Shown here one piece after another: positions 13,461-58,354 of a DNA stretch of 64,000 nt. Within the stretch, counting starts at the first letter, position 1. Every line of letters begins with the position of its first letter. This DNA is from a virus. The notes under the pieces are model-generated. The model saw only the letters and a program-made list of their open reading frames with translations, was not told the DNA's origin and did not search any database. The stretch lies in the IMG/VR virus record IMGVR_UViG_3300016471_000863; one strand, 5' to 3'. A program made the position numbers and the translations under genes.

Positions 13461-14804
13461 ATGAAAATGAAACACATTTTAAAAGAATATATTGAATCTC
13501 AAGTTAAAGCAATCCTGAAAGAAGGATTTTATGAAAATCCAATGACTACCATTCAAGATGTTTTGAATTCTTTTAGTGGTAAAACTTTAATATTTTTTGA
13601 TACCGAGACAACAGGACTTTCTGGTACAATGAAATGGTCGCAGATAACCGAAATTGCTGCGGTAGCATTTGATGACAATGCAAAAGAACTAGGGCAATAT
13701 CATACAAAAATTAATCTAGGCAATGTTGTTAAAAATGAAATAGAAAAGCAAAAGAAAAAACAAAAAAATCAAGAATTTATAAATTTTCTGCAAAAGGAAT
13801 TGCCAAAACCAGAAAATATATTACAGCTAAAAAACTTAGAAGAATTTCTAGAGGAATTGGGAACGTCGATACGTAAACAAGAAAATCTTCCAAACAAGAA
13901 AAATTTGATAAAATTACAAAAAAATTTACTTGATCAGCTTTCAAAAAAAATTGAAGAAATATCTGGCGGACAGAGTGCTGATACAAAAAAATTTCCATCT
14001 TTAAATAACGATAAGAACTCTTTTAATATCCAAAATGAAATTGAAAAAATTATAAAGAATTCAGAAAATACAGCAGGGTTTCATCTTGAAGAAATAAGAA
14101 ATTTTATAGAAAAAATAACGCAAAAGAATTCATGGGAACCAGGACGCCAATCTATTGAAGATGTTCTAAAGCTCACAGGATATTATAGTTCAGATGATCC
14201 CTCTGTTAAATACATAGAGGAAGGCGAAGCATTAAAAGGGTTTGTAGAATTTATAAAATCATTTTCAAATCCATTGTTAATTGCCCACAATGCAACATTT
14301 GATATGATGCAAATCAATAACGGAATGAAACGACGTAATTTAGGGGTTTTACCAAAAGACATTCCCGTTTTAGATACGGTTAAATTAGTAAAAAATTATA
14401 TACATCCACTATTGAGAATATTGAAAGGTGGTTCACCGCCCGAAATAACAAAAAGGCTAATAGTTGCTCTATCTTATCCTGCAAAAGATATAAAAAATAT
14501 GGATATAGAGCAATATAAGCAATTCATTGACGAACAAAATATAGATGAAATTTATCAAAATGTTAAAAACCTATATGGTTCACTAAAACATTTGGCGGCT
14601 GGATTAAATGTTGAATTAAAAAATTGGCATTCCGCTGTTGCAGATGCCACAGCATTGTCTGGGGTTCTACAGAAACTTTCACAAATAATGACTAGATACG
14701 AAAAATTTGAACAAAGATTTGAGATGCAAAGAAAACGAGCCTCTGATATTGGTTATCGACGTTCGCAGGAATCAAAAAAGAAAAGAAAAGTTAATTTAAC
14801 TTAA
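13461..14804 (+). CDS. DEDDh 3'-5' exonuclease (DnaQ-like) with large helical insertion and N-terminal 'LKEYI...ILKE' leader
   Basis: Exo I FFDTETTG, Exo II LIAHNATFD, Exo III WHSAVADA. Confidence 0.9.
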   Translation: MKMKHILKEYIESQVKAILKEGFYENPMTTIQDVLNSFSGKTLIFFDTETTGLSGTMKWSQITEIAAVAFDDNAKELGQYHTKINLGNVVKNEIEKQKKKQKNQEFINFLQKELPKPENILQLKNLEEFLEELGTSIRKQENLPNKKNLIKLQKNLLDQLSKKIEEISGGQSADTKKFPSLNNDKNSFNIQNEIEKIIKNSENTAGFHLEEIRNFIEKITQKNSWEPGRQSIEDVLKLTGYYSSDDPSVKYIEEGEALKGFVEFIKSFSNPLLIAHNATFDMMQINNGMKRRNLGVLPKDIPVLDTVKLVKNYIHPLLRILKGGSPPEITKRLIVALSYPAKDIKNMDIEQYKQFIDEQNIDEIYQNVKNLYGSLKHLAAGLNVELKNWHSAVADATALSGVLQKLSQIMTRYEKFEQRFEMQRKRASDIGYRRSQESKKKRKVNLT

Positions 14805-14981
14805 TTCCCTAATAATTTGCTGTTCTAATAAATCAATTAGTTCTGATGCACGAAATGTAAATGTTTGCTCTAATGCCGGATAAATAAAAGTAATTGAGAA
14901 ATTATCGTTTTTATTACTTGTCATATAATAGTTGTGTAAGAACCGGACATAACGGTATATGTTGGTTTATTGTTAGACATA

Positions 14982-15791
14982 TCAATTTTCCTCATGGTCA
15001 GCGTCTATTAGCGTTCCGATTTCTATTATCCTTGGAGAAGGGTCATATTGTATTCTGGTTCTTTCGGAGAATAATTCTTCTGTATATAGATTTCTTCTAT
15101 GCACCCATTGATCAAGCAACAAGAAGTTAGTTCCTTTTTCAAGAACGTGTCTATACGAAGTTGGAAGGTCTGGACGTTCTCTTATTTCGGTTTTATGTCG
15201 TCGCCGTTCCAGTTCTACCGTTTCAACGGTTATTTCCCATATTCTTTCTTCGCCAAGAAGCTCTACTGCTGCCACTCCTGGCTCTCTTTCCCAAGCGTGT
15301 ATTCTAACAGGGAAATCATATGGATTGCGGATTATGAGATCGGGTTCTGTCCAGTTAACGGTAGCATCAAGACCGGGATCTATATATGTCATATATCTGG
15401 AATGATGTTGAGCGTTAAGGATCTCCATTCCGGAGAATATGGCTGCGGCGTGTAGAGTGCTTGACACTTGACATATACCACCTCCTGGCGCTATAAAGAT
15501 TTCTCCATTAAGGATTGTCTTAGCTTGTCTCCATCCCCGAGAGGCTGTTCTTGGTCCCAGGAGGCGATTATAGGAAAGGGATTGTTCTGGAAGGAGAATG
15601 GTTCCATCCAGTTTTCTCATGGCTCTACGAACGTTATAGGCACGATTACGTATGATATCTTCCCCTGCATAATGGAAGTGAGTTTCATATGCACCAAGAG
15701 TTGTGGTGCCCACGGAGATATCCTGGGCAATAACTGCTGTAGAGAACAGAATACTATTAAGAACTAATGCTATTAGAAGACGAATATTCAT
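14982..15791 (-). CDS. Secreted VanW-family protein
   Basis: Signal peptide MNIRLLIALVLNSILFSTAVIA; RAYNV, SYNRLLGPRT, GGGICQVSSTL, PGLDATV, IRNPY; G5-like C-terminus. Confidence 0.88.
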   Translation of the reverse strand: MNIRLLIALVLNSILFSTAVIAQDISVGTTTLGAYETHFHYAGEDIIRNRAYNVRRAMRKLDGTILLPEQSLSYNRLLGPRTASRGWRQAKTILNGEIFIAPGGGICQVSSTLHAAAIFSGMEILNAQHHSRYMTYIDPGLDATVNWTEPDLIIRNPYDFPVRIHAWEREPGVAAVELLGEERIWEITVETVELERRRHKTEIRERPDLPTSYRHVLEKGTNFLLLDQWVHRRNLYTEELFSERTRIQYDPSPRIIEIGTLIDADHEEN

Positions 15792-15899
15792 GCTTTGATG
15801 ATACCATTACTATGTTATGATTTATAATAGAAAATTGTAACCCATATGAGAATTTTTTGAATTATAATTTTTTATAAGCATTAAGTGAAAATAAAAAAG

Positions 15900-15935
15900 C
15901 AAAAAGCTATCAAATTTATGTCTAATAGCTTTTTG
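15900..15935 (-). terminator. Intrinsic terminator-like hairpin
   Basis: CAAAAAGCTAT...ATAGCTTTTTG 11-bp inverted repeat, T-rich run on the minus strand, downstream of 15981..17144. Confidence 0.6.
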
Positions 15936-15980
15936 AGTTTATGAACTATACTTGTTTAAACAGTATGAATATTAAACAAT

Positions 15981-17144
15981 TCATCTCTTTCTGAGTTCTT
16001 TTTTTATTGATTCACGAATGTAGTCTCTTATCGATGCTAAAACTTCTTGATCCGCTTCTCCACGTCCTCTGGTTTCTGGATTAAAAATAGCTACTATTTC
16101 GGGTCTAACTTTTTCATGAACAGCTTTTGCTATATTTGGAAATGGCATATCAAGTTTTTCAGGATCATACTTAAAGAAGAGATCTTTGAGATGTGTTATT
16201 GCATTTTCTTCTGTAATTTCTCCTCTTAAATAATCTGTTATGAATTGCCTTTCTGCTTCATTCAGATCTTCGACATTCATTGCTAATTTTATATTATTTA
16301 TTTCTTCAAGGCTAAGTTTAGTAAAATCTTCAGGAGAAACATCAGCTAGTTTTATATCTAAATTATTTAATAATTCTGTGATAAATTTTTCAATTTCTTC
16401 ATCAATAATTTTTATTAAAACATTGTGTACTTCTGCAATAGCTTTATTAAAATCTTCTGGATTTTTTAAATTGACTTTGCCTTTTCTAACGGCTTTTAAA
16501 ATAGCAGAAATTTTTTCACGACTTTTGCCTTTGAATATAGGAGCCAATGAAGTCATTTGAGACAATTTTTCCATCGCAGCGGCTTCTATTTTTTCTGCCA
16601 TTTGTTTTGTAACATCTAATACATCTGCAATTTTTTGCAATGTTTCTTCGCCAGTTTGATAAACTGGTTCCGGTCTTTTTTCTGTTTCTTCTGTATCTAC
16701 AACAGAAGATGTTTCTAATCTTTCTGAACCTGGGATCCATTTTCGTAATGAATCTTTCAGTGCTTTAACGGATAAAAATTGAAGTGAGGGAAATTCAGAA
16801 CTAACTTGTTTTATGTCTTCTTTATTTTCTATTGGAGAATAAAGTTTGTCAATTAAATCTTCAAGAGAAAACCCTAATTTTTTTTCATTAAAGAGCTTTA
16901 CAAATGTTGGATATTTTCGATTTATTTCGTCAACAACATTTTTTTTAACTTGTTCTGTGGTTTTTAGTTCTCTTGTTTGTTTAGCTTCTTTAAGAATTGC
17001 TTCTTTTATCATTGAACGAATTTCATTCACAGAAATTTTCTTTGTGCTTTTTGCAACTGGTTTACGTTTTGTAGCGGCTTCTGCAATTTGCATGGCTGCA
17101 ACTTTGCGGATTAAAGTTCTTAATTCATTTAATTTTATTTTCAT
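15981..17144 (-). CDS. Protein with a sigma-70 region-4-like HTH and repeated amphipathic leader modules
   Basis: EETLQKIADVLDVTKQMAEKIEAAAMEKLSQ matches the sigma70 r4 pattern TLxEIxxxxxVTxERxRQIExxAxxKL; no region 2 recognised. Confidence 0.7.
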   Translation of the reverse strand: MKIKLNELRTLIRKVAAMQIAEAATKRKPVAKSTKKISVNEIRSMIKEAILKEAKQTRELKTTEQVKKNVVDEINRKYPTFVKLFNEKKLGFSLEDLIDKLYSPIENKEDIKQVSSEFPSLQFLSVKALKDSLRKWIPGSERLETSSVVDTEETEKRPEPVYQTGEETLQKIADVLDVTKQMAEKIEAAAMEKLSQMTSLAPIFKGKSREKISAILKAVRKGKVNLKNPEDFNKAIAEVHNVLIKIIDEEIEKFITELLNNLDIKLADVSPEDFTKLSLEEINNIKLAMNVEDLNEAERQFITDYLRGEITEENAITHLKDLFFKYDPEKLDMPFPNIAKAVHEKVRPEIVAIFNPETRGRGEADQEVLASIRDYIRESIKKELRKR

Positions 17145-17198
17145 TTTATACCCATAGAAATCTTTTTGTAATTATTTGAAGAAATTATGATTCACATA

Positions 17199-17489
17199 TC
17201 AATCTTCAGATTTTTTTTCTTCAGCAGAGGAATTTGAATTTTTAGAAGAGGATTCTGAGGTAGAATTGGCAGCACTCTTATCAGCCCATCTACGTCCAAA
17301 GTATAAAACTGTAAGTGGTGTTAGATAACTCATTGCCTCTGTGCCGGAAAATTCTCTTATTTTAATACCGAAAGCTTCTTCTACAATAGACACAAGAAGC
17401 CATAGGGTAACTACGGTAAATCCTATTACCATCATGGTAAATGAAGCAGATTTTTTTCCATCACTTTGTTCTAAAAGAGGTACTTTCAT
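17199..17489 (-). CDS. Putative holin (small membrane protein)
   Basis: 96 aa, hydrophobic segments FTMMVIGFTVVTLWLLVSIV and AMSYLTPLTVLYFG, charged tail, next to spanin-like genes. Confidence 0.55.
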   Translation of the reverse strand: MKVPLLEQSDGKKSASFTMMVIGFTVVTLWLLVSIVEEAFGIKIREFSGTEAMSYLTPLTVLYFGRRWADKSAANSTSESSSKNSNSSAEEKKSED

Positions 17490-17510
17490 ATAAATCCTTT
17501 TTATTAAGTA

Positions 17511-18499: not shown

Positions 18500-18500
18500 G

Positions 18501-18899: not shown

Positions 18900-18917
18900 A
18901 GGAACCTCTTTCTTTTA

Positions 18918-19193
18918 TTATGTATTTTTCAATTGCTGTTCTATTAGAGAATAGATTGTATCTGCATCTGCTTTTTCTAATTTTCTATCTAATGCTCTAT
19001 CTAATTTATACTTTTTTGCTCCTTCGTATAATGCCTCTATTTGTGGGTCGCACATAGCGACTTTTGTTGCTATATATGAGAAAAATAATTGTGGATTTAG
19101 ACCTTTTTGAAAAAGAATTCTTCTCAAGTCGAGTAATTGTTGATGCTCAAATTGAAAAGTAATAGTTCTCTTTTCAAGTTTTTCCAAAATCAT
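18918..19193 (-). CDS. Hypothetical protein
   Basis: 91-aa ORF overlapping the upstream stop. Confidence 0.7.
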   Translation of the reverse strand: MILEKLEKRTITFQFEHQQLLDLRRILFQKGLNPQLFFSYIATKVAMCDPQIEALYEGAKKYKLDRALDRKLEKADADTIYSLIEQQLKNT

Positions 19194-19846
19194 CCTCCTG
19201 ATGCTGCGGAATTTGGACCGGTAGTTCCATACAACACAGGATCTGAGTAATCCTCTGGGAAAGCGGTTGATGTTGGATGAATTCCGTAATTTTGTTCCAT
19301 CATTTCTGTAAACTGTTTTGCAGTTTGTGAATCATAATTTGATGCAATATAAGCTTCTGCACGATTTAAAATAATCGTTTTTGGATCTGACAATGCTTCG
19401 AAATTATTGATTAATCTTGCTACGGATCTAGCAAAATCATTTAAGTTAATAATTGGAGTTTTGAAAATTGGATTTTCTTCTGCTGGACCTCCTCCTCCTC
19501 CTCCTCCTCCTCCACCTGTATCTGGTGGAGGTTCGCTTGTATCTCCACCTCCTTCGGCGGCACCAGGATCTTCCTGTTCAAATAAGAATTTTTGCAATAA
19601 TTTTACATTGTTGCTTGCAGCACTTTCCATCATTGGTAGTTTATCTAAACCGATATTATCGGACATAGGAATACTTTCCTTTTCATATCTGATTAGATAA
19701 CGATCTATAACTTGATCTAAAGAGATTGGTCTGCTTTTTTGCTTTGAAAAGTCTGCAATTTTTTTTGGATATGACATTTGCGGCATTTGCTCTTGCAAGA
19801 CTTTTGCATTTGTTGTTAGAGGTGCTTTTTTTATTTTTCTTTTCAT
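19190..19846 (-). CDS. Hypothetical protein with poly-Gly linker (candidate head protein)
   Basis: KLLQKFLFEQED followed by a G10 tract ((CCT)n at about 19488-19515). Confidence 0.75.
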   Translation of the reverse strand: MKRKIKKAPLTTNAKVLQEQMPQMSYPKKIADFSKQKSRPISLDQVIDRYLIRYEKESIPMSDNIGLDKLPMMESAASNNVKLLQKFLFEQEDPGAAEGGGDTSEPPPDTGGGGGGGGGGPAEENPIFKTPIINLNDFARSVARLINNFEALSDPKTIILNRAEAYIASNYDSQTAKQFTEMMEQNYGIHPTSTAFPEDYSDPVLYGTTGPNSAASGG

Positions 19847-19865
19847 ATGGATACCAATCTTTGAT

Positions 19866-20828
19866 TCAAACTATTCGTGAAGTACCAGGCTGTTGAGGAA
19901 CCATTACAGGAGAACCTACCCCAGATGGAATTGCAGGAGAAACCGTGCCTTGAACTGGCTGTACGCTAGCAATTGGCAATTCTTCAGCTTTTTCTGCCGC
20001 TGCTAAGAGTTTTTCTGGTCCATCATTTACCATTGGCATAATTTGATATATTAAATTTAAATTTGCATTTTCGGCAACTTTCATTCGTGCTTCTATAACA
20101 TCCCAATTTAACTCTTTCATCATGCCAATTAGATATGATTTTTTATCATCAAGATAATCTTTAAAATATGCATGTTCCCACATGTCCATAACAATAACAG
20201 GAATTGCACCTACAGGAATATCTTTGTTGTGACTATTGACAATTACATTCATGTACTTGTTTTTATATGGTTCATACACACACATAGCCCAACCATTTCT
20301 CGCTGATAATGCGGTGGAAATAAAATCAAGTTGCCAAGCTTCAAAAGTTCCCCAATCACGAGCCAATCTCATATAAGGAAAAGAATTAACGCTTATTTCT
20401 GAATTTAAATCTGAAATGTTTGCCCAATATAATTCATGTAATTTGATGCCATTTAAATTGTAATTTTCATCTACTTTTAATGAACGAAAGGAGCTGTGAG
20501 TTGAATTTGCATTTTGTCTATTAACCGCATCTAATTCAGAAGAAATTTTGTTGAAAGAATCTACATATTTTTTATATAAATTGAAATGTGCTTCTTTTGC
20601 ACCTTTTGATAATCTTTCTGTTTTTAAGATAAAGTTTTTTGGAATTGCTACAAGAGCTTCTTGTAGGGTTGCAATTTTTTCTTTCATGTTTGTTAAAACT
20701 TTAACTGGAGTTTTTAGAAGTGGTTCTTCTTTTGATTCTTTAATCAAACCATTTGTTTTAAACGTAGTTTGAATTGAATCACGAATTAAAGAACGGAGTT
20801 CTTCGGGTTTAAATTTAATTTTTGACAT
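19866..20828 (-). CDS. sod: Fe/Mn superoxide dismutase with N-terminal leader extension
   Basis: Ligand motifs AHFNLYKKY, LHELYW, MDMWEHAYF; ARDWGTFEAW, RNGWA; about 60-aa N-terminal extension. Confidence 0.92.
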   Translation of the reverse strand: MSKIKFKPEELRSLIRDSIQTTFKTNGLIKESKEEPLLKTPVKVLTNMKEKIATLQEALVAIPKNFILKTERLSKGAKEAHFNLYKKYVDSFNKISSELDAVNRQNANSTHSSFRSLKVDENYNLNGIKLHELYWANISDLNSEISVNSFPYMRLARDWGTFEAWQLDFISTALSARNGWAMCVYEPYKNKYMNVIVNSHNKDIPVGAIPVIVMDMWEHAYFKDYLDDKKSYLIGMMKELNWDVIEARMKVAENANLNLIYQIMPMVNDGPEKLLAAAEKAEELPIASVQPVQGTVSPAIPSGVGSPVMVPQQPGTSRIV

Positions 20829-31504: not shown

Positions 31505-32161
31505 ATGAATAAATATAACAAAATAATTTTAAAAAAATTGATTGAAAATGAAGTTTCTAATTATATTTCTATTCTTTTAGAACAAGAAACTCCCCCTGCT
31601 CCTCCTGCCACAGAAGATCCGCCTGCTCCGGAGCCTGCGGCAGCGCCGCCACCAGTTCCTCCTGCTGCACCAGAAGGTGCTCCTGCTGCGCCAACAGATG
31701 CTGCTACGCCTCCCGTAGATGCTGCGGCGGCAGGAGCACCACCAACAGATACCGGAGCAGCACCAGCAGCCGATCCTGCGGCAGTAACCCCACCCGCAGC
31801 AGGCGGCGAAGGTGGAGATATGGGAGGGGCACCTGGGGCACCGGATGCCGCAACAGGAGAACCCGAAGAAGAAACTTTTGGAATTAAACAAATCGAAGCG
31901 CCTCCTGATGCTGCACCGGAGCAAAGCGAAAAAATACAATTTAATAATAAATTGTTAGATTTGGCAAAAACAAAAAGAGAAGAATATAAAAATCTTACAA
32001 ATCCAGATCAGTTAATATGGAATGAATTAAAAACAGAATTAATAAATTCTAATAAAGATTTAAGCGAAGCAATACCAGCTACTTTAGCTTTATCGGTTTC
32101 TACAGATCAAATTATATCAGCAGTAGGACGTAATTTGGCAGTTTTTATATTACTTAAATAA
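31505..32161 (+). CDS. Pro/Ala-rich protein with leader module (candidate internal head protein)
   Basis: ILKKLIENEV...ILLEQE followed by about 110 aa of low-complexity Pro/Ala sequence. Confidence 0.8.
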   Translation: MNKYNKIILKKLIENEVSNYISILLEQETPPAPPATEDPPAPEPAAAPPPVPPAAPEGAPAAPTDAATPPVDAAAAGAPPTDTGAAPAADPAAVTPPAAGGEGGDMGGAPGAPDAATGEPEEETFGIKQIEAPPDAAPEQSEKIQFNNKLLDLAKTKREEYKNLTNPDQLIWNELKTELINSNKDLSEAIPATLALSVSTDQIISAVGRNLAVFILLK

Positions 32162-32188: not shown

Positions 32189-32503
32189 ATGAAGATTACC
32201 AAGCAAGAATTAAATGAAATTATTAAAGAAGCAGTCCAAAATAAATTAGCTTCTTTAAATGAGGATGTAAATTTCACAGCAAAAAGAAATGTTGTTATGG
32301 CGGCACAACATGCTGCAAAAGCATTTGAAAGCGAAATTATTAAAACATTTGATCTCCGACATCCAGATAAATTACCAACGGAAATACAAGAAGCATATTT
32401 CGCTATTGTAAAAGAAATGGAAAAAGATTTCGTCGCCGCAGTACAAAAAGCCGTTCGACAATTGGTTCGTTTCCCAAAAAATAAAGCAAGAAATGAACGA
32501 TGA
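32189..32503 (+). CDS. Leader-bearing hypothetical protein
   Basis: MKITKQELNEIIKEAVQNKLASLNE; GGAG RBS. Confidence 0.8.
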   Translation: MKITKQELNEIIKEAVQNKLASLNEDVNFTAKRNVVMAAQHAAKAFESEIIKTFDLRHPDKLPTEIQEAYFAIVKEMEKDFVAAVQKAVRQLVRFPKNKARNER

Positions 32504-32690
32504 TATAAAAAAAACGCTTGTAGAAGCGAGAGTATTCACAGCTTCAAAAGCAATAAATGAAATGCTTGATCTTCTTGAGCAATTGGGAGAAATTGAATTT
32601 TGTACAAAATTTGTTAATAGACTAAATGAAGATAAAAAGTTATTAAACATTCTTCAAGAAATAAAAAGAAAAGAAAAATTAGGTTTTTAA
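32493..32690 (+). CDS. Hypothetical protein
   Basis: 65-aa ORF coupled to both neighbours. Confidence 0.65.
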   Translation: MNDDIKKTLVEARVFTASKAINEMLDLLEQLGEIEFCTKFVNRLNEDKKLLNILQEIKRKEKLGF

Positions 32691-32691: not shown

Positions 32692-33276
32692 ATGACAACA
32701 TTTAATTCAAAACGTTTTGCAAAATTAGCTGGACTTCTTAAAGAAAATTTAGGAAGTGCAGAAGATGCAGAAAATACAGCAGATTTAGCAGCTCTTGGAA
32801 TAGAAAGGCGTCTCGGCGGTCCTGGCGGAGTAGAAGGATTTGGCAGACGAGGCGGCAAAAGAATGGAAGAATCAAGAAAATCAAATAAGCAAGTTCTTTC
32901 TTCTTCTCCCGTATCAATTTCTTTAAAAGCCGTAATGAAAAGCTGCGATCATTTAAACGAATGCGGTTGTCAAATGCAAGCTCCATTTGACGCACCAGAA
33001 GATGAACCACAAGGCTATATGCTTGTGCAAAATTTAAAGAAATTGGCAGCAAAAGCAGCAGAACTATCAACAATGGCAAATCATGATGACGATGCAGAAC
33101 CATGGGTTGAAAGCAAAATTAACTCAGCGGCTAAAGAAATAGATGCCATTTATGATTATATCAAATATGGTCGTCCATCTGATCCTCATATGATGCATCA
33201 TGAAAAAGACATGCCACATGATGATTTTTCAGATATTGATATGCATGTAGTTAATACTTATGAAGAAAATGAATGA
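32692..33276 (+). CDS. Leader-bearing hypothetical protein
   Basis: RFAKLAGLLKE; HLNECG; EPWVESKI...IYDYIKY. Confidence 0.8.
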   Translation: MTTFNSKRFAKLAGLLKENLGSAEDAENTADLAALGIERRLGGPGGVEGFGRRGGKRMEESRKSNKQVLSSSPVSISLKAVMKSCDHLNECGCQMQAPFDAPEDEPQGYMLVQNLKKLAAKAAELSTMANHDDDAEPWVESKINSAAKEIDAIYDYIKYGRPSDPHMMHHEKDMPHDDFSDIDMHVVNTYEENE

Positions 33277-33279: not shown

Positions 33280-34737
33280 ATGAGTATGGAAAATAAAAAA
33301 TTAAAATTATTAATTGAATCAAATGTTCGTTCTATTATAAAAGAAGAAAAACGTAAAATCCTACTAGAGAAAAAAGTAAATAAACTTCTTACCGAAAGAA
33401 AACAATTATCCGAAAAAGCTGTTTTATTAGAAAATAATTATAAAATTAATCAAAGAAAATTAGCAAAATTAAATGAAGCAATTCAGATGAATGAAAATTT
33501 CCTATCTAAAATAGGAAGAGCCTTCAAAGGTCTTTTTGGTGGATTAAAATCAGATGATCTTGACCAGATGTCAAAAGAAAAAGAACAAAAGACTATTGCT
33601 CAAAAAGAGCAATATACCCAAAAAAAATTAAATATAATTTATGATTTAATTGATAAATTAGAAGATAAAATTAGAAATAAATTTGCCCCCCATATTGATA
33701 GAATTCCTACCGTAAAAGAAATAGAAGATTTTTCAAAAGAAACTAGAAATTTATACACTACATTAATTGATTCTTTCCCTGAATTAAAAGGAAAAACTAT
33801 TACTGATTTATTAAAACCTCTTTCAAATGCAGAAGCTGCGGAATATGATAAGTTTGTTGGTTCCGGCAAAGGAAGTTCTTCTATTCCAGGTAAATTCCTA
33901 ACTGATATGGGAAAACTAAAAAGAAGTGTTCTTTCAATTATTAGAAGCGTTCAAGATGCTCTTGAAGGTCATGCAGCCAAGCTAAAAGCAAAACAAAAAC
34001 AAACGGAAGAAGATTATTCGGATATAATAAGAGAATTAGAATTGAAAAACAAATCTTTAAAAGATTTATTGCAATCTAATGGTGAAGCACTGTTATCAGG
34101 AAAACTTCCTGTAGAGCCTATTGGCTATGGAACTCCAGGTTGGGCGAAAGCTGCCACAGGATTTAGAAAGGCACCCAGAAGAACTGGTGATGGTCCTAAA
34201 ATGCCAGAAACGGAAAGAAAGCCTTTAGCTACAGCAGTTTCAGATCAAGCAGTTAAAGGAACAGAAAAGGCTCTGGATAAATTAAAAAGTGGCATTACCA
34301 ATGTCATTGCACAAGTGACGCAGGCAGCACAAGCAGCACCACCAGAGGATAGGGCAGAAATCGTTAAGGTAATGAGAGTAATTCCAATTAGAGATGTGCC
34401 CAGAGTGCAAACACAGCCCGCGCCGCCCCAAGAAATTGGGTATGAAAACAATTTAGAAGATGCCAGACGAAAGTTAGGAAAACTAACAGGAGCATATGGT
34501 AATGTTATGGGACGAATTAGTAAAGTTGAATCTGATTCAATACAAAAAAGAGGACAATTAGAAGATCCAAATATCAAAAACAGAGAAAAATTACAAGGTT
34601 CTTTATTAATTAAAGGCATGAGTCTAGTTAATTTGCAAGACGAAGCCGAACAAATTGAACGAAGTATAGTTCTACTCAGAAATTTACTTAATGACCTACA
34701 AGAATCAATTAAAAGAAAAAATAAAAAAATTGTTTGA
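33280..34737 (+). CDS. Leader-bearing helical protein (candidate ejection protein)
   Basis: LKLLIESNVRSIIKEE, multiple L-x-E sites, amphipathic NFLSKIGRAFKGLFGG. Confidence 0.8.
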   Translation: MSMENKKLKLLIESNVRSIIKEEKRKILLEKKVNKLLTERKQLSEKAVLLENNYKINQRKLAKLNEAIQMNENFLSKIGRAFKGLFGGLKSDDLDQMSKEKEQKTIAQKEQYTQKKLNIIYDLIDKLEDKIRNKFAPHIDRIPTVKEIEDFSKETRNLYTTLIDSFPELKGKTITDLLKPLSNAEAAEYDKFVGSGKGSSSIPGKFLTDMGKLKRSVLSIIRSVQDALEGHAAKLKAKQKQTEEDYSDIIRELELKNKSLKDLLQSNGEALLSGKLPVEPIGYGTPGWAKAATGFRKAPRRTGDGPKMPETERKPLATAVSDQAVKGTEKALDKLKSGITNVIAQVTQAAQAAPPEDRAEIVKVMRVIPIRDVPRVQTQPAPPQEIGYENNLEDARRKLGKLTGAYGNVMGRISKVESDSIQKRGQLEDPNIKNREKLQGSLLIKGMSLVNLQDEAEQIERSIVLLRNLLNDLQESIKRKNKKIV

Positions 34738-34770: not shown

Positions 34771-35100
34771 ATGAAAATAACAAAGCAAGAATTAAATAAA
34801 ATTATTAAAGAAGCTGTACAGAAAAAATTAAAAGAAGCAGCTCTAGACTATACAGATTTGCTTCCTGGTGTTGATGGCGGGTTACAGGAATATGTGGAAG
34901 AAGTTGAAGTATTTTTATTAGAAACAGCTAATCGTGCAGAAGAGCTTTATAAAAAAGCCGATGACATGATGAGAGCAGATATTCTCAATCATCCAAAAAT
35001 CGGTGAAAAGAATAGAGTTCTTCTTGCTCATGCTGGTGTTCTGCGAACTTTACACGGCAATATTACAACAATATTCCGTTATCTACGCCAGCAGGGCTGA
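34771..35100 (+). CDS. Leader-bearing hypothetical protein
   Basis: MKITKQELNKIIKEAVQKKLKE. Confidence 0.8.
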   Translation: MKITKQELNKIIKEAVQKKLKEAALDYTDLLPGVDGGLQEYVEEVEVFLLETANRAEELYKKADDMMRADILNHPKIGEKNRVLLAHAGVLRTLHGNITTIFRYLRQQG

Positions 35101-36403: not shown

Positions 36404-37054
36404 ATGTCAAGCAGAGAAAGATTAGAATTTAAAAGAAAAATGTTTGAATCAAAGCAAGCTAGAATTTATGGAACAGCAGTTCTAAAAGAAGAAAAAGAAT
36501 CTTCTGGCGAAAAAGATCCATTAAGACTTGCATACATGAAAGATTCTAGCGTCATGACTCACCCTGTTCTTGATTTAGGAACCGCCGAACATCCAGAGCC
36601 AGAAAGAGCAGAAGATACAAATGTTTCTTTCGAAAAAGAAAAAGAAGCACCTGTAAAGATGCCAAAATCTAAAGAAGGCGCTCCTCCAAAGCCATTAGAT
36701 CCACACAAGCTTCTAAAAGCAGATGAGAAAAATGTTGCGGAGAAACAAGAAGAAGTTGAAGAAGTTTTAAAATTAAAAGAAACCATCAAGCATCTTGTAA
36801 TGGAAGAATTGCAAGAAGCAGCCAAAACTTACAAAGGCAAATCTATGCGTTTAGGTGGCGGTGGTCGCTTTGCTAAAATGGTTGATGCCATTGTTCGAAA
36901 AGGTTATTCAAAAAAATCTGCAAAAGCTATTGCGGCAAAAATTGGTCGTGATACCTACGGAAAACAAAAAATGGCTCAATGGGCAGCAGCGGGAAAAAAA
37001 AGAAAATCTAAGAATAAAAAAATAGATGAATTGATGTTAAATATTGGGGAATGA
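36404..37054 (+). CDS. Protein with internal leader module and C-terminal basic domain
   Basis: LKETIKHLVMEELQE then GGGGRFAKM...AIAAKIGRDTYGKQKMAQWAAAGKKRK. Confidence 0.8.
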   Translation: MSSRERLEFKRKMFESKQARIYGTAVLKEEKESSGEKDPLRLAYMKDSSVMTHPVLDLGTAEHPEPERAEDTNVSFEKEKEAPVKMPKSKEGAPPKPLDPHKLLKADEKNVAEKQEEVEEVLKLKETIKHLVMEELQEAAKTYKGKSMRLGGGGRFAKMVDAIVRKGYSKKSAKAIAAKIGRDTYGKQKMAQWAAAGKKRKSKNKKIDELMLNIGE

Positions 37055-46365: not shown

Positions 46366-46554
46366 ATTTAATTATGATTAAATTATTAACTAATATTCGT
46401 TGATTATAAAATTTATTTTTAATAATAAATTTTCTTTATATTATTGCTTATTTTGTAATAATAATTTTCATAAAATTTAATTTGAAGATTTAACAAAGTG
46501 GAACCCTACCCATATAAGAGAGAAGAATATACTCTCTACTTAAGTTTAAATACA

Positions 46555-47661
46555 ATGAAAAGTTTATTAAAAGAATATATTGAACTCATTATTAAACAGG
46601 TTTTGTCTGAAGACATTGATATGTCTCGTTTGTCTCCATCTGTGGTCGGAGTGTATGCTTTTGCTCAAGCAATCAATAAGTTAATATATGAAGGCGAAGC
46701 CTTGCCGGGTGCCTCACCTATTGATATCATAGATGCACGTCGTGGACTTGGAGGACGAGGTGGTGGTCGTGGAGAAAATTGGGCACCAATGACAACCCCA
46801 ACCGAACAAAAAAAAGGTATGTCATTTCAATATAGCGGGAATAGCTTTAAACTTTATTTAGATCCAACTATTCCAACGCCCGTTATGAGTGCTGGAGATG
46901 AAAGCCATGATATCATGCACGCATTCACCGGTTATATAGCCAAAGCCTTTGGTAGACGCCGTGAAAGTGTTCTGAAAAGCAAAAAATACGATATCACTCC
47001 TTCACGTTTCAATAAAATTGTTCTTGATAAGAAGATGCGAGATAAAGTCAATAATGCATTTAAAAAAGAATTTGGCTTTTTACTTCCAAATGAAGTTTTC
47101 GAAAAGCCTTTTGAGCTCCGAGATGAGACAGAGTTCCGATATTGGTTTTTAGATCAATTTGAAAATAAAATGGGTGATATACGGATAGACGATAAAGAAA
47201 AGATAGCCAACCAGCTATATTATTCTATAATGCCATCTGATAAGTTTGCTCCGGGGCATATTGCAAGAAGATATTGGGCTCGTCGTCCTGAAAACAATCA
47301 AGAGCCGAACTTTAAAGATGCGACTACGTATAGCTATAGACCACTTGGATTTGATACCAGCCAAGTACCAGAGATTGCCTACAAACAATCATCTGAAGAT
47401 GAAGAAGAACTCGGTAATATAATGAGTGACAAGATAGGACAATATATCGCAAGTGGTGAGAAAATAGAAGACGTAAAAACAATTGTAGATGAAATAATGA
47501 ACAAATATAATGCATCAGTAGGATTAACTGGAATGTCACCTGAAGAATTTAAACGTCGCTGGAATACGCCAGAAGTTATTGCTTCAATGACTAGATTGTT
47601 TGAATTGTACAATTCATTGTTGTCCAATTATAAAAAAGCTATTAAAAAATCAACAACATAA
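46555..47661 (+). CDS. Leader-bearing hypothetical protein (HDxxH, possible zincin variant)
   Basis: Likely start MKSLLKEYIELIIKQVLSE at 46555 after TACTTA; ESHDIMHAF. Confidence 0.75.
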   Translation: MKSLLKEYIELIIKQVLSEDIDMSRLSPSVVGVYAFAQAINKLIYEGEALPGASPIDIIDARRGLGGRGGGRGENWAPMTTPTEQKKGMSFQYSGNSFKLYLDPTIPTPVMSAGDESHDIMHAFTGYIAKAFGRRRESVLKSKKYDITPSRFNKIVLDKKMRDKVNNAFKKEFGFLLPNEVFEKPFELRDETEFRYWFLDQFENKMGDIRIDDKEKIANQLYYSIMPSDKFAPGHIARRYWARRPENNQEPNFKDATTYSYRPLGFDTSQVPEIAYKQSSEDEEELGNIMSDKIGQYIASGEKIEDVKTIVDEIMNKYNASVGLTGMSPEEFKRRWNTPEVIASMTRLFELYNSLLSNYKKAIKKSTT

Positions 47662-49503: not shown

Positions 49504-49524
49504 TCAAAGAATATATTTAAATAT

Positions 49525-50208: not shown

Positions 50209-50224
50209 TTAACTATTTATTAAT

Positions 50225-51535: not shown

Positions 51536-54500
51536 ATGGCAGAACAAATTTTTAAATTTCCAGGATTTTTTGATAGAGAAATAGATTTAACCGCACAAAC
51601 ATCATCTCCCGTAGGAATTCCAGCAGGAGTTGTTGGTGCATCTGAAAAGGGTCAAGCTTTTATTCCATACACTGTGGGATCTTTTAGTGATTTCATCACT
51701 AAGTTTGGTGATTTAGATCCAAATTTAGCTGCTCCATATGCTGTAGAAAAATTTCTACAAAATAGAAATGCACTTACCTTTATAAGAGTATTAGGCGCAG
51801 GTTCCAATACGACAAGTGTTGATTTTGAAGCAACTCGTACAAAAGGCACGGTAAAAAATGCTGGCTTTAAAGTTGTCGGAACTGCTGTTGGTGGAACTGA
51901 TGGCAGACAAAAGGGAGCAGTACAATTTATAGTTGCAAAACATAAAGTGTCTGGTTCCGAAGCTGTAGGCTTTCCTATTTTTACAGATAATCAAAGCTAT
52001 CCAAAAATGACTTCTGGCACGGCTGATGATGAAGTAAATGTAGTGCGTGCTCAAATATTCTGTGCTTCAGATTCTAGAATAATGTTACTAAGTCACAATG
52101 AAAATTGGGGTAGTTCTGTAGATGATTTTGCTACCGCAACTGGATCTGTAGGTGTAAATTATGTACCTGCTAGATTTAAATTAGTAATTTCCTCCTCTCA
52201 GGGTGCATCATTTGGTAATAGTGACGGCTTTGCGGGATTAAGAATTTATACAGCCAGCCTAGATCCAAGTGATCAGAATTATGTTGGAAAACTTCTCAAT
52301 AAAGATCCGCAAAAATTCGAAGAAGAAAGGCACTACCTCTATTCTGATTTTGCTGTTGATGCTGAAATTGCTTCATTGTCAACTGGATCAGATTGTGTTG
52401 CTATACTTTCTGGTTCAAGCACAACTTCTCTTGCCGGAAATTCTTTCCTAGAAACTTATGGAAGATTTGACACGAGATATACTACTCCTTCAACTCCATG
52501 GTTTATTTCTCAACCATTTGGCGGGATAGAATATGATCTCTTTAGAATTGAATCTCGTGATGATGGAGCATACGCTAACAGCAGATATAAGATTTCAATT
52601 ACAAATATAGTAGCCTCAAGTAATCCAAATAACCTATATGGAACATTTACTGTAGCTGTTCGTGAATTCGATGATAGCGACTTCCAGCCAAGAGTAATTG
52701 AACAATTCGTAAATGTAACTCTTGATCCAAATTCTGATACATATATTGCGAAAGTAATTGGCGATAGAAGTGCATACTTTAATTTTGATGCATTGGAGCC
52801 AAGTGATAGAAGAATTATTACCAGCGGCAAGCATCTCAACAGATCAAATTATATTAGGGTTGTAATGAATCCTGAATTAGAAGCAGGAAATATTCCAGTC
52901 AATGCTTTACCATTTGGTTTCAGAGGTCCACAATTGTTGAATACAAATTCAACATTAACAGATGTTACAGGCTCAGTCTTTAGATTAGCTGGCTCTGGAT
53001 CTGCTGTTGGTTCCAACGGTGATCTACTTGGTTCTATAGTGCCACCTATGCCATATAGATTTAAAGTCACAAGAGGCGAAGTAGATTCGAGCCCATCTTA
53101 TGTCGGAGAACCTGGTATTCTAGAAATAGCAGATTCAAGATATTATTGGGGTGTTAAGTTTGAAAGAACAACTGATGTTCTTAATTCAAATATCGATCCT
53201 CTACAAAATAACTTAATTAAATCTCTAACACAGTTTGGTGGTATTTCAAAATTAGATGCTATAGTAACTGGTTCTTATACTGATCAATTTAATAGTAATA
53301 AATTTACCTTAGCTAAGGTTGCTCTATTTAATTCGTCTATTTCTGATGTGACAGCTTCATCAAATGTTCACATGAGAGAAGCTTCTTATATAAGAGATGG
53401 TGTACCAGATGTTACAAACTACACAATAACAGATGTTTTGTCGGGCACTCCAAGAGTTACGCTCGCAAGCCTACTGCAAAAAGCATCAGCTTCAACTTTT
53501 AATATTTTCTCAAATTATACTAAATTTACCACTATAATGTTTGGTGGTTTTGATGGTACTAATATTCTGGATAAGAACGCAGCATCATTAAATGACAGAG
53601 CTACCTCTACAGAAAACAGAGGAACAATAAGAGGTAATTGCAATTCTTCTTTCGTTTCTCCTGGTCTTGCAACAAACGTAAACGGTGTTGGCATACAGAA
53701 TAATACAGTAGCTTCATACAGGGCTGCTCTTGACATAATCACGAATCCACTATTATCAAATGTTAATCTTCTTGCAATACCAGGGCAAAGAGATCCATTG
53801 GTAGCAGATTACGCCAGAAGCGTAAATCAAGATTACGGTCTTTCTATGTATCTAATGGATATACCAAATTATAATGATCAGCAACAAAGAATTTGGGATG
53901 GCGATCCTGTAAATTCTGGCACCATCATTAGCGTTCCAGATACTGCCTCTATATTTGAATCAAGAAATATAGATGATACTCTGGTTGCAGCATACTTCCC
54001 AGATGTTGTTATTAATGATGCAAGAAACAACAGAAGAGTAACGGTTCCTGCAACCGTAGCTGCTCTGGCAGCTCTTGGATACAATGACAAAGTTGCATTC
54101 CCATGGTTTGCCCCTGCTGGCTTTAATCGTGCAGCACTAGATTTCGTATCTCTTACAAGAACACGATTGAATCAATCTGATCGTGAGCGGTTATATCAGG
54201 TAAGGGTTAATCCGATTGTTAAATTCCCAAGAGAAAATTATGTAATCTTTGCTCAAAAAACGCTTGATAATAATCAAACTTCTCTTGATAGCATCAATGT
54301 TCAAAGAATGGTTCTTGATGTCAAGAAACAAGTAATTGATGTTGGCAATAGATTGATTTTCGAACAATTGACTCCGGCATTAAGACAGCAGTTTGTTAAG
54401 AATGTTACCCCGATCTTAACAAATGTTCAGAGTAGAGGTGGTTTGCAACAGTTCAAAGTTATTTGCGATAACACAAATAATACTAATTTGGATGTTGAAA

Positions 54501-54601
54501 ACAACAGAATGAATGCAAAAATCTTACTTGTGCCAGTTAAAGCAGTAGAATTTATCGCAATCGACTTTATTATCACAAGAGCGGGTGTGGAGTTCGTCTG
54601 A
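51536..54601 (+). CDS. Contractile tail sheath protein (copy 1)
   Basis: FPGFFDREIDLT, GGFDG, LLAIPG, AAYFPDV, PWFAPAGFNRA, VNPIVKFP, INVQRM, PVKAVEFIAIDF. Confidence 0.95.
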   Translation: MAEQIFKFPGFFDREIDLTAQTSSPVGIPAGVVGASEKGQAFIPYTVGSFSDFITKFGDLDPNLAAPYAVEKFLQNRNALTFIRVLGAGSNTTSVDFEATRTKGTVKNAGFKVVGTAVGGTDGRQKGAVQFIVAKHKVSGSEAVGFPIFTDNQSYPKMTSGTADDEVNVVRAQIFCASDSRIMLLSHNENWGSSVDDFATATGSVGVNYVPARFKLVISSSQGASFGNSDGFAGLRIYTASLDPSDQNYVGKLLNKDPQKFEEERHYLYSDFAVDAEIASLSTGSDCVAILSGSSTTSLAGNSFLETYGRFDTRYTTPSTPWFISQPFGGIEYDLFRIESRDDGAYANSRYKISITNIVASSNPNNLYGTFTVAVREFDDSDFQPRVIEQFVNVTLDPNSDTYIAKVIGDRSAYFNFDALEPSDRRIITSGKHLNRSNYIRVVMNPELEAGNIPVNALPFGFRGPQLLNTNSTLTDVTGSVFRLAGSGSAVGSNGDLLGSIVPPMPYRFKVTRGEVDSSPSYVGEPGILEIADSRYYWGVKFERTTDVLNSNIDPLQNNLIKSLTQFGGISKLDAIVTGSYTDQFNSNKFTLAKVALFNSSISDVTASSNVHMREASYIRDGVPDVTNYTITDVLSGTPRVTLASLLQKASASTFNIFSNYTKFTTIMFGGFDGTNILDKNAASLNDRATSTENRGTIRGNCNSSFVSPGLATNVNGVGIQNNTVASYRAALDIITNPLLSNVNLLAIPGQRDPLVADYARSVNQDYGLSMYLMDIPNYNDQQQRIWDGDPVNSGTIISVPDTASIFESRNIDDTLVAAYFPDVVINDARNNRRVTVPATVAALAALGYNDKVAFPWFAPAGFNRAALDFVSLTRTRLNQSDRERLYQVRVNPIVKFPRENYVIFAQKTLDNNQTSLDSINVQRMVLDVKKQVIDVGNRLIFEQLTPALRQQFVKNVTPILTNVQSRGGLQQFKVICDNTNNTNLDVENNRMNAKILLVPVKAVEFIAIDFIITRAGVEFV

Positions 54602-54637
54602 GAATAATAGTTAAATAATAGAATATTGGAGTACTAA

Positions 54638-57604
54638 ATGACACAAATATCGTTTAAATCTGCTGGAGTCTCAGCGAGAACAGTTAATCTAACCGGTCCT
54701 ACGGCAATACAGCCCACAGGAATCCCTGCTGGTGTAATCGGACCTTCTCTAAAGGGTCCAGCATATGTTCCAGTAACGGTCGCTACAAGTCAAGACTTTA
54801 ATGTAATTTTCGGAAATCCTACAGATAATTTCAATTATGGACCATTATCTGTAAGCGAATGGTTAAGAAATCAGGGCTCTGCAACTTATATTAGAGTATT
54901 AGGAATTGGAAATGGTCAAGCCAGAAGCACAGAAGGCTTAAATGCTGGCAGAGTCGTTAATGCAGGTTTCGTAGTTGGAGATTTGCAGCCGCAAGAAGAT
55001 GGTAGACTAGCAGCAAATCCATATGCTAATGCCGGTGGCGACCTTGGTAGAACCTATTTCTTAGGTTGCTTCATGAGTCAAAGTTTAAATTCTTCTGTCT
55101 TTACTGACGCCGGATTATCTGGTGCTGGTGTTCCGATTGTAAGAGCAGTATTATTGGCTCCATCTGGCGTATTACTTAGTCTATCCTCTGCAAGAGACAC
55201 AAACAATGCAATTACTTCAGCAACGGTAGGTGCAGTCGGAAGTGCTCTCGGTGCTTCAACTGGCTCTCTTGTGTTGTCGGCATCGAGACAAGAATTCGTA
55301 ATGCTTCTAAATGGACACAAAGGAAATGATACGCAAAATCCAAATGTTTTAACTGCATCATTTGATATTGAAGCGCCAAATTATTTCGGCAACGTATTCA
55401 ATACAGATCCAGATAATTTCCAGAAAGCTGGTCACTTGCTTTATGCCGAGTATAAGTTGTCTCCAAGTCTAGCGGTTCCAACCGGATCTTCAATCGTTAT
55501 TGCTGCTTCTGGAAGTACCGGAGTTGAAAATATTGCATTCCTAATTACCGGTTCCGTAGCCAGAAATTCTGGAAGCTCAACAGCGCCAAATTATGAAAAC
55601 TTTGAAGATAGATTCAGAACAGCTAAGTCTCCATGGGTAGTTTCTCAGAAATTTGGCGGAGCTGTTCAAAATCTATTTAGAGTTCATTCACTAGATGATG
55701 GCTTGTATCCAAATGCTCAAATTAAATTTTCAATAGAAAATATAACCCCAAGCAATACATCAGATCCATATGGAATATTCGATCTTGTTGTAAGAAGTTT
55801 CTCAGATAATGATAAAGCAAAGGTTGTCCTTGAAGCATTTAGAGGCGTCAGTCTAAATCCAGGTTCAGATAGATATATCGCTAAAGTTGTCGGTGATTAC
55901 AATACGTACTATGATCTAGATCAGACTTTAAGCGCACAAAAACTTATTACGGTTGGAGATTATACAAATAATTCAAAATATATTCGCGTAGAAATGGCTG
56001 ATAAAGTAGCAGCAGCCGAAGTAGATCCATCAGCATTACCATTTGGTGTTCGTGGATTGCCGCACTTAGTTACCTCTGGCTCTGCTCTTGCTTCACAAGT
56101 TGATGCAAATTACTATCAAATATCTACAAATATATTTAACGGAACTGTACAAATGCCAGTTCCATTTAGACAAAATCTAAATCGTGGAACAGGTGCTGCA
56201 CAAAGTGCTGATCCGGGGCTTTACTGGGGTATTCAGTTTGAACAAAAAATCTCTGCAACTGAACTAAACTCCTCAACAGTACCAGATGTAACCTTAGAGA
56301 GTCTTACAAAATATTTCCCAGATTTCCAAAAAGGTTTCATAAATGTAGTTGTATCAGATAACGCTGGTGTTGCAGATGGAGCAAACGGTATCGTAGATGC
56401 AGATAGATTTAACAACAATCTATTCTCTCTAGGAAATATCAGAGTTCCATATATCTCAGGCTCAACATCTGTTGATACCGTTAACGTTGTAAGTTGGTCT
56501 TATGTAAGACAAGGCGGTATAACAACTGATACGGTTAACTTTACTCGTGCGTTAGCTGTAGATGATCTTCTAGATCCAACGGTAAGAAGATTATCTAAGT
56601 TTAACTTCTGCCTACAAGGTGGATTCGATGGCGTAAGAATTTTCGATAAACAAACAAGATTATTTACCGATGTAGCAGTTTATCAAGAAATGCAACATTC
56701 AAATCGTGGAACAATCAATGGCGCTACAGTTTCTGCATACAACAAAGCATTAGATTTAATTTCCGATGCAACAGAAGTTGATATCCAACTACTAACAATT
56801 CCAGGATTACGTCATCCAATTATCACAGATAGAGCACTACAGGTTGTAGAAGATAGATTTGATGCGCTCTACATCATGGATATTCAAGAAAAAGATATCA
56901 ACAATAATCTAGTCTCATCTAGTAATCAAATTGTTTCTGTACCAAATACAGTTCTTGATTTCACAGGAAGAGGTATCAACACCTCATTCGGAGCAGCCTA
57001 TTTCCCAGACGTTATTCTAAGAGATACAGTTAACAATACAGTTCGTCAAGTGCCACCATCAGTTGCTGTCCTTGGAGCATTCGGTAAAAATGACTCCGTA
57101 TCATACCCATGGTTCGCACCAGCAGGCTTTACCAGAGGTGCCCTAGAAACGACTCTAGAAACCTCTGTGCAGCTTTCTAGACTAAACCTAGATGATCTAT
57201 ACTCCGCAAGACTAAACCCCCTTACGTCCTTCCCAGGAAGCGGTGGAGTGGTAGTCTGGGGTCAAAAGACAATGCTTACAAAAGAGTCAGCTCTTGAAAG
57301 AGTAAATGTTCGTAGACTTCTCATAGATCTTCGTCGCCAAGTAAAAAGAATTGCAAATCGTATCGTATTCGAACAAGGTTTGCCAGAAACACTTGCTCGC
57401 TTCTCACAACTTGTAACTCCAATCCTCAAGAGAGTACAAGATCAGAATGGCGTAGATCGTTATCTAGTCAAAATTGACACAAGTACAACAACTCAAGCAG
57501 ATTTCGAAAACAAGACAATCCGTGGTAAGATTTATATCCAGCCAACTCGTACTCTTGAATTCTTGTCAATTGACTTCGTACTTAGTAACCCTGGCACAAT
57601 CTGA
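54638..57604 (+). CDS. Contractile tail sheath protein (copy 2)
   Basis: SAGVSARTVNLT, GGFDG, AAYFPDV, PWFAPAGFTRG, LNPL, WGQKT, RVNVRRLL, PTRTLEFLSIDF. Confidence 0.95.
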   Translation: MTQISFKSAGVSARTVNLTGPTAIQPTGIPAGVIGPSLKGPAYVPVTVATSQDFNVIFGNPTDNFNYGPLSVSEWLRNQGSATYIRVLGIGNGQARSTEGLNAGRVVNAGFVVGDLQPQEDGRLAANPYANAGGDLGRTYFLGCFMSQSLNSSVFTDAGLSGAGVPIVRAVLLAPSGVLLSLSSARDTNNAITSATVGAVGSALGASTGSLVLSASRQEFVMLLNGHKGNDTQNPNVLTASFDIEAPNYFGNVFNTDPDNFQKAGHLLYAEYKLSPSLAVPTGSSIVIAASGSTGVENIAFLITGSVARNSGSSTAPNYENFEDRFRTAKSPWVVSQKFGGAVQNLFRVHSLDDGLYPNAQIKFSIENITPSNTSDPYGIFDLVVRSFSDNDKAKVVLEAFRGVSLNPGSDRYIAKVVGDYNTYYDLDQTLSAQKLITVGDYTNNSKYIRVEMADKVAAAEVDPSALPFGVRGLPHLVTSGSALASQVDANYYQISTNIFNGTVQMPVPFRQNLNRGTGAAQSADPGLYWGIQFEQKISATELNSSTVPDVTLESLTKYFPDFQKGFINVVVSDNAGVADGANGIVDADRFNNNLFSLGNIRVPYISGSTSVDTVNVVSWSYVRQGGITTDTVNFTRALAVDDLLDPTVRRLSKFNFCLQGGFDGVRIFDKQTRLFTDVAVYQEMQHSNRGTINGATVSAYNKALDLISDATEVDIQLLTIPGLRHPIITDRALQVVEDRFDALYIMDIQEKDINNNLVSSSNQIVSVPNTVLDFTGRGINTSFGAAYFPDVILRDTVNNTVRQVPPSVAVLGAFGKNDSVSYPWFAPAGFTRGALETTLETSVQLSRLNLDDLYSARLNPLTSFPGSGGVVVWGQKTMLTKESALERVNVRRLLIDLRRQVKRIANRIVFEQGLPETLARFSQLVTPILKRVQDQNGVDRYLVKIDTSTTTQADFENKTIRGKIYIQPTRTLEFLSIDFVLSNPGTI

Positions 57605-57630
57605 TTAAAAATCAATTCAACAAACATTAG

Positions 57631-57660
57631 CCACTAGATTTATTTCTAGTGGTTTTTGTT
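57631..57660 (+). terminator. Intrinsic terminator after the sheath genes
   Basis: CCACTAGA-N6-TCTAGTGG followed by TTTTTGTTTT. Confidence 0.85.
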
Positions 57661-57760
57661 TTTGTATGCAAAATACATATTTATAACAGTCGATAAGCAA
57701 CTTGTTTCCCTACTGCTTCCGCAGTTAATTTTTACATAAAGTTGCATATAAAGGAAGTGT

Positions 57761-58354
57761 ATGAAAGTTACAATTACAGAATTACGAAAACTAATAGCAG
57801 AAGCAATAAAAGAATGCGGCGATATGTGGGTTGAACCAAGTCCAGAAATGGACACAGCAAAACCTAAAATGAATCTAAATGGCTCAAAATCTGATCCATA
57901 TTCGCAATTAAGTCCATTGGCAGATGAAGCTGCCCTCATGTCTCCTCCAGAAACAGCAGTAGGAGAAGATGAATACATGTCCACCAACCCAGCAAGGGAA
58001 GATATGATTCCAAAAATGACTTTACTTCTTCCATTACAAGAAAAAGAAAGAAAGAAAAAATGGATGCAAGCCGCTGTTAAAAAACCAGGAGCATTGTCAA
58101 AAGCTCTAGGAGTACCAGAAGAAGAAAATATACCAATGAGTCTTCTTCAGAAGAAAAAAACTCAACTTAGCAAAAAAGCAGAAGGCGATAAAAAACTATC
58201 CGCAAATGAAAGAAAACTTCTTCAAAGAATTAATTTTGCAATCACCGCTAAAAAACAAGCCGGAAAGAAAAAAAAGAAACCAGCAAAAAAAATAGATGAA
58301 TCTTTCATCAGAAAAGAAATCGCTAGAATAATAAAAGAAACATTAAGCAAATAA
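57761..58354 (+). CDS. Protein with N- and C-terminal leader modules flanking a basic domain
   Basis: MKVTITELRKLIAEAIKE; KWMQAAVKKPGALSKALGVP; IDESFIRKEIARIIKETLSK. Confidence 0.8.
   Translation: MKVTITELRKLIAEAIKECGDMWVEPSPEMDTAKPKMNLNGSKSDPYSQLSPLADEAALMSPPETAVGEDEYMSTNPAREDMIPKMTLLLPLQEKERKKKWMQAAVKKPGALSKALGVPEEENIPMSLLQKKKTQLSKKAEGDKKLSANERKLLQRINFAITAKKQAGKKKKKPAKKIDESFIRKEIARIIKETLSK

Follow-up and report, generated by a model that had tools for sequence, protein, structure and literature searches.

A portable N-terminal helix on unrelated proteins of a T4-like phage group as a candidate capsid-targeting propeptide

The phage recorded in IMG/VR as IMGVR_UViG_3300016471_000863, of which 64,000 nucleotides (nt) were analyzed (the window, on which all features are numbered), has a genome of 34% G+C and places the same short peptide on a series of unrelated proteins. 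This peptide, which we call the tag, is an amphipathic helix of about 17 residues with the consensus M-K-(I/L)-T-(K/R)-x-(Q/E)-L-(R/K)-(K/R)-(I/L)-I-(K/R)-E-(E)-h. Its best-conserved part is I-(K/R)-E, occupying profile positions 12-14 (I/V, K/R, E). The original prediction took the tag, on about 13 proteins of the window, for the address of a T4-like system of capsid loading and processing.

In its main form, the tag scores above 16 bits eight times in the window, on six proteins. The two highest scores belong to small proteins encoded on the plus strand, one of 104 amino acids (aa) at 32189..32503 (tag at residues 1-17, nt 32189-32239; 39.0 bits), for which homologous clusters numbered only 4 in 5.8 billion proteins, and one of 109 aa at 34771..35100 (residues 1-17, nt 34771-34821; 41.1 bits). 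A basic protein of 197 aa (57761..58354, plus strand) has the tag at its N-terminus (nt 57761-57811; 34.7 bits) and a tag-like helix at its C-terminus (nt 58298-58348; 16.2 bits). Its gene lies between the sheath and tube genes: upstream are two tail-sheath paralogues of about 1,000 aa each, arranged in tandem on the plus strand (51536-54601 and 54638-57604) and kept as a pair in several relatives, and downstream, at 58471, is a protein that looks like the tail tube. On the minus strand, a 387-aa protein (15981..17144) without a match in Pfam or PHROG carries two copies, at residues 1-17 (nt 17094-17144; 24.4 bits) and 35-51 (nt 16992-17042; 27.1 bits). The 368-aa product of 46555..47661 (plus strand), a member of a conserved tagged family, begins with the tag (nt 46555-46605; 20.5 bits), followed by L-S-E and a conserved body; the start of the open reading frame (ORF) called at 46498 is probably the ATG at 46555. 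The sixth carrier is an Fe/Mn superoxide dismutase (SOD; 19866..20828, minus strand; Pfam PF02777, 1.9e-18, domain from about residue 74), in which the tag at residues 4-20 (nt 20769-20819; 18.8 bits) is followed by a linker and then, about 10 residues ahead of the SOD fold, by a conserved L-Q-E.

A local variant of the tag, [LY]IE[SN].V, has five copies in the window where 0.11 would be expected, three of them at residues 10-12 of proteins encoded on the plus strand. The first is a DEDDh exonuclease (13461..14804; Pfam PF00929, 1.1e-11; RNase_T domain from residue 44), whose leader (residues 1-21, nt 13461-13523; 4.7 bits on the clade profile described below) has the motif at residue 10 and ends in L-K-E; a search for loci related to it in IMG/VR found none. 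The others are a Pro/Ala-rich protein of 218 aa (31505..32161; variant tag at residues 2-18, nt 31508-31558, motif at residue 12; 7.6 bits) and a coiled-coil-like protein of 485 aa (33280..34737; residues 6-22, nt 33295-33345). Two flavours of the tag, MKIT..EL..IIKE and M.LLKEYI.LIIKE, are joined by intermediates in relatives. The 194-aa protein at 32692..33276 (plus strand) had also been counted as a carrier, but its KRFAKLAGLL-type motif (residues 7-18, nt 32710-32745, from a motif census) is a different one, resembling a scaffold C-terminus. Three of the items first listed amount to noise, among them that at 36404 (3.7 bits on the clade profile) and a C-terminal one in the 15981-17144 protein, so that the count becomes nine tagged proteins, six with the main form and three with the local variant, and one more with the second motif.

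Several of these genes form a co-oriented island at 31.5-35 kb, of which 31505 is the first. The island shows gaps in the alignment to IMGVR_UViG_3300013132_000253, a contig of 80-88% identical DNA that also has the leader of 31505. The nucleotide similarity of the 33280 gene to that contig is confined to about its first 80 nt; a shorter gene of 355 aa with the same leader stands in its place. Within the island, an untagged protein of 65 aa (32493-32690, plus strand) contains six [LI]xE tripeptides against 1.8 expected (z 3.5).

A strict core of the tag, E[LI]..[LIM]I[KRA][EKD], occurs in 7 copies in 5 window proteins, with a mean of 0.13 and a maximum of 2 in shuffled sequences. Relative loci were collected with the sheath and capsid proteins as queries, and a 17-column profile built from the window copies was run iteratively on the window, on 161 of these IMG/VR loci and on two longer relatives. 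The resulting clade profile detected 225 copies in 217 of 2,429 ORFs, while composition-preserving shuffles gave 0-4; for the window, the eight matches above 16 bits compare with 0.27 matches above 9 bits in shuffled window proteins. The tag is a real, portable module, far above chance. The N-tagged proteins (n=196) fall into 58 body families (blastp, 1e-4), mostly singletons, bearing out the claim that one helical module sits on unrelated bodies. The tag is present on about 5.6% of ORFs in a 213-kb relative and on about 9% in head- and tail-centered loci, and is retained in phages whose sheath is only about 50% identical. A literature search found no paper describing the tag family, and tblastn of a 22-aa tag against cultured phages gave no match, the query being too short.

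The position of the tag is equally distinctive. The N-terminus holds 88% of the copies, where 4% would be expected, and a profile of 11 columns from which the Met column was removed still placed 186 of 212 matches there (4% expected). Apparent internal matches are mostly N-termini with mis-called starts. Because of this preference, the suggestion that the tag is used equally at N-terminal, internal or C-terminal sites is weak, occasional internal and C-terminal copies notwithstanding.

Comparison of the 32189 and 34771 genes indicates what is conserved. Their tags are identical at 16 of 17 residues, as first reported, and the first 20 codons of the two genes show 6 synonymous and 2 non-synonymous differences, while the bodies behind them gave no significant blastp match to each other (best alignment 10 residues, E 5.5). 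Synonymous change within the tags, with unrelated bodies behind, supports selection on the tag at the protein level.

The family of the 46555 protein, with 1-2 copies per genome, is inserted in the tail module of the sub-lineage to which this phage belongs and comprises 18 cluster members, for which 13 distinct sequences were listed, 11 of them full-length. An AlphaFold2 model has a pLDDT of 70 overall and shows the tag as a low-confidence helix (pLDDT about 50); Foldseek found no PDB match to the fold at E <= 0.001. A copy 84% identical to the window protein (L011:2942-4129) is present in a phage whose sheath is only 60% identical, a disparity that suggests recent exchange of this tagged gene between lineages. 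Beside it in the window, on the minus strand, is the gene of a protein of 2,103 aa that contains Ig domains together with a glycine-rich ALK/LTK domain (40054-46365); IMGVR_UViG_3300013132_000253 is without a counterpart of this gene and has a second tagged gene of the 46555 type instead.

The head genes of the group were found in five relatives with 50-213 kb of sequence (G001-G005). All five encode a Peptidase_S77 protease, the family of T4 gp21, adjoining a T4-type portal gene (PF07230) and a gp23-type capsid gene. The conserved order is terminase, portal, a 285-aa gene, protease, a tagged gene of about 140 aa, a tagged gene of about 80-100 aa, a 164-aa gene, a scaffold-like gene of about 650 aa, and capsid. 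No tagged families are larger than those of the two small genes directly after the protease, with 38 and 36 members. In public metagenomes, the family of about 140 aa forms more than 1,100 clusters, with 'hypothetical protein' as the only source name shown. The small tagged and scaffold-like proteins had no Pfam or PHROG matches, and profile searches of head-module families A1 and A3 against PDB sequences gave nothing. In G004 (L102/L103, region 8912-12295 of the joined stretch), a single open frame of 1,127 aa runs without a stop through both the scaffold-like and the capsid protein; fusion, read-through and misassembly are each possible explanations.

T4 gp21 cleaves after (L/I)-x-E, a rule with which the I-(K/R)-E of the tag core agrees at the level of sequence. 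Further Glu sites lie at the junctions of leader and body. Across the SOD family (the window protein and 9 phage orthologues), leader lengths are very different, and [LI]xE is found in one column in 10 of 10 sequences, at the same short distance before the fold. The 57761 family, aligned with orthologues of phages that share 68% sheath identity, consists of the tag, a hypervariable linker, a conserved L/M-Q-E and a conserved basic body, and the 46555 family of the tag, L/M-x-E and a conserved body. T4 gp23 loses a propeptide of 65 residues (PMC9958956), and its residue 65 is the Glu of L-T-E, followed by A. In alignment, this cut column reads L-K-E before S or I-K-E before A in G001-G004, with L-K-E before T at the matching place in G005. 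The alignment of these sites on the T4 gp23 cut suggests that the cleavage specificity of the clade protease is probably conserved with T4. In the relatives' capsid protein, the stretch aligning with the gp23 N-terminus is also preceded by an extension that resembles the tag more weakly. Counts of [LI]xE alone were rejected as evidence, since the tripeptide is mildly enriched throughout the window (280 against 226 expected). Of two regions that had been singled out for L-x-E junctions, 6729-8837 is enriched (14 against 6.5, z 3.2) and 19190-19846 is not (2 against 2.1).

A second address-like peptide emerged from the scaffold-like protein, whose C-terminus reads R-W-A-x-L-A-G-I-x-K without variation in more than 60 loci (including L095:13445-15379 of G001, and also L191:18725-19966). 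The cultured Flavobacterium phage immuto has the same scaffold ending, in a gene annotated as 'DNA polymerase phi-like protein', probably a mis-annotation. This ending also closes non-scaffold N-tagged proteins of relatives and three tandem paralogues in the closest long relative, and in the window the motif lies near the N-terminus of the 32692 protein. The presence of two address-like peptides on the same proteins, both linked to the head module, strengthens an interpretation in terms of the capsid.

The tag is linked to the head-protease module, the relatives encode a protease of a suitable type, and the Glu sites are conserved. From these sequence features and by analogy, we propose that the tag is probably a capsid-targeting propeptide of the T4 kind, expanded to a much larger scale. 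Through the helix, a tagged protein would dock to the prohead core during assembly; in this phage group, the two small conserved proteins with the same helix would be part of that core. A gp21-type protease would then cut after the Glu of I-(K/R)-E in the tag and at the second (L/M)-x-E before the body, leaving the mature protein inside the head, where it would reside in the virion until its ejection into the host. The proposal shares its outline with the original prediction, whose portability, selection, Glu site and protease (in the phage group) gained support while several of its listed instances did not hold. A bolder version, which the motifs make conceivable though somewhat less than probable, is a two-part address code in which an N-terminal helix common to head-core proteins is joined by a copy of the scaffold C-terminal peptide; with it, a widespread uncultured clade of T4-like giant phages may load dozens of swappable proteins, active SOD and exonuclease included, into the capsid for delivery with the DNA.

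The closest precedent is the capsid-targeting sequence (CTS) of T4 internal proteins, which Mullaney and Black are said to have shown in 1996 to be removed by the gp21 prohead protease. It recruits IPI-III and Alt to the scaffolding core, functions on foreign proteins as well and is clipped off by gp21 (PMC3012670, PMC9958956, PMC5694885). The tag resembles it as a short N-terminal leader on unrelated, fast-evolving proteins, with a Glu site of the (L/I)-x-E type at its end, and the phage group resembles T4 in its gp21-type protease, T4-type portal and gp23-type capsid protein. Unlike the CTS, the tag of the window is 17 rather than 10 residues long, has no profile-level similarity to it, and is carried by about 5-9% of ORFs rather than about four proteins. 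It is also present on conserved head-module proteins and, weakly, on the capsid protein, has occasional internal or C-terminal copies, and is accompanied by a motif copied from the scaffold C-terminus.

Two further systems offer partial likenesses. Head and ejection proteins of phages phiKZ, 201phi2-1 and SPN3US have long N-terminal propeptides that are cut by a gp21-related protease (PMC5694885, PMC10052503). These are likewise giant phages with many processed inner-head proteins, propeptides with multiple Glu sites, and paralogues with identical N-termini that their authors compared with the CTS. Their propeptides differ from the tag in being mostly longer than 100 residues, in having no single portable consensus and in the cleavage motif (S/A/G)-x-E, and the head genes of the group studied here are T4-like, not phiKZ-like. 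In scaffolding proteins with C-terminal coat-binding peptides, and in encapsulin cargo peptides, a short terminal helix suffices for entry into an HK97-fold shell. The recurrence of the invariant scaffold C-terminus on non-scaffold proteins recalls these peptides, whereas the main tag is N-terminal and has protease sites.

Several observations weigh against a capsid-targeting propeptide. The N-termini of T4 IPI-III, Alt, gp23, gp24, gp67 and gp68 all score below -14 bits on the tag profile, so that the likeness to the T4 CTS is one of analogy, not homology. Comparison by hhalign of the small tagged head-module and scaffold-like proteins with T4 gp68, gp67 and gp22 gave probabilities below 1%, and it is therefore gene position and size that suggest a role for the small tagged proteins in the core. 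The internal and C-terminal copies are not explained by a simple cleavable leader, many tagged genes lie among replication and nucleotide-metabolism genes outside structural operons, and the T4 late promoter (TATAAATA) was sought upstream of tagged genes without success. The protease and head module are known from relatives, the window's own head module lying outside the window, and a metagenome scan for a continuation retrieved a single 4.5-kb contig that reaches 4 kb beyond the window end and holds small genes. A search for a close cultured relative by comparison of sheath and capsid proteins found none; the nearest cultured phages, Microcystis phage Mel-JY01, Flavobacterium phage immuto and Rhodothermus phage RM378, have sheath or capsid identities of 25-47%.

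The association with the head module would also fit a helix that is never removed. The tag could be a permanent assembly or oligomerization element of head-core or scaffold-like proteins, its carriers staying bound as parts of the core instead of being cleaved and injected as cargo. The best-conserved carriers are indeed the two small head-module proteins, the helix has a heptad-like pattern, and some proteins have two or three copies, or a C-terminal one, as a cross-linker would. We nevertheless regard this as unlikely: the majority of carriers are rapidly changing singletons and enzymes, SOD and the exonuclease among them, improbable parts of a scaffold, and the conserved [LM]xE at leader-body junctions suggests removal.

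The tag-like start of the relatives' capsid protein raises the possibility that the tag recruits a chaperonin, sending hard-to-fold phage proteins to a phage-encoded GroEL. For T4 gp23, Snyder and Tarkowski (2005, cited in PMC10052503) are reported to have found that the N-terminus guides proteins to GroEL. The window encodes a GroEL-like protein of 472 aa (5310-6728, plus strand) that matches a PHROG chaperonin family only and not Pfam Cpn60, and three of the five relatives encode a full Cpn60 of 542-582 aa. Many carriers, though, are helical proteins of 80-110 aa with little need of a chaperonin, and such recruitment leaves the conserved Glu sites and the link to the protease module unexplained, making it an improbable account.

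We give about as little credence to a third alternative, in which the tag addresses proteins to some partner or place unrelated to the capsid, such as a replication factory, a cytoskeletal filament or a degradation machine. The scatter of tagged genes among those for replication and nucleotide metabolism would fit such an address, and its carriers include a nuclease, SOD and a weak HAD-like hydrolase; the last was among the matches to ten tagged proteins from relatives scanned against Pfam, all of them sub-threshold. Against this, no candidate reader protein was found, and in no other genomic setting is the tag as strongly associated as with the genes for the head protease and scaffold. Finally, the proposal that the peptide has no function, reflecting A-rich codons after the start or chance among Lys/Glu/Ile-rich helices, as the low G+C content and the mild enrichment of [LI]xE everywhere might permit, is largely refuted by the shuffling controls (0-5 matches with composition kept, against more than 200) and very improbable, given that the peptide is retained through synonymous changes and in phages with a sheath about 50% identical and that copies also lie inside proteins and at C-termini.

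If the tag does prove to be a capsid-targeting propeptide, abundant environmental phages would bring into the host a large and rapidly changing set of pre-made proteins, far beyond the handful of T4, and the tag would provide a sequence handle with which to list this arsenal directly from metagenomes, a list that would include likely anti-defense factors as well as enzymes (SOD, for example). Like the T4 CTS, which already has this use, the 17-residue tag with its conserved cut sites would be a candidate means of bringing foreign proteins into phage heads, and the scaffold-end motif found alongside it offers a lead on possible mutual recognition of cargo and shell.

Other genes of the window complete the picture of the locus. 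On the minus strand, 618-4124 encodes a PIN-PhoH protein split by intein sequence with LAGLIDADG endonuclease domains, possibly a PhoH gene with two inteins. A protein of 1,472 aa looks like a polymerase of the PolIII-alpha type, an assignment from its N-terminal sequence alone, without a family scan. Among the relatives, the 212.8-kb IMG/VR contig G001 has, at about 205-212 kb (L096), Arg/Pro-rich ORFs unlike those of the rest of the contig, which suggests high-G+C foreign DNA and a possible chimeric assembly.

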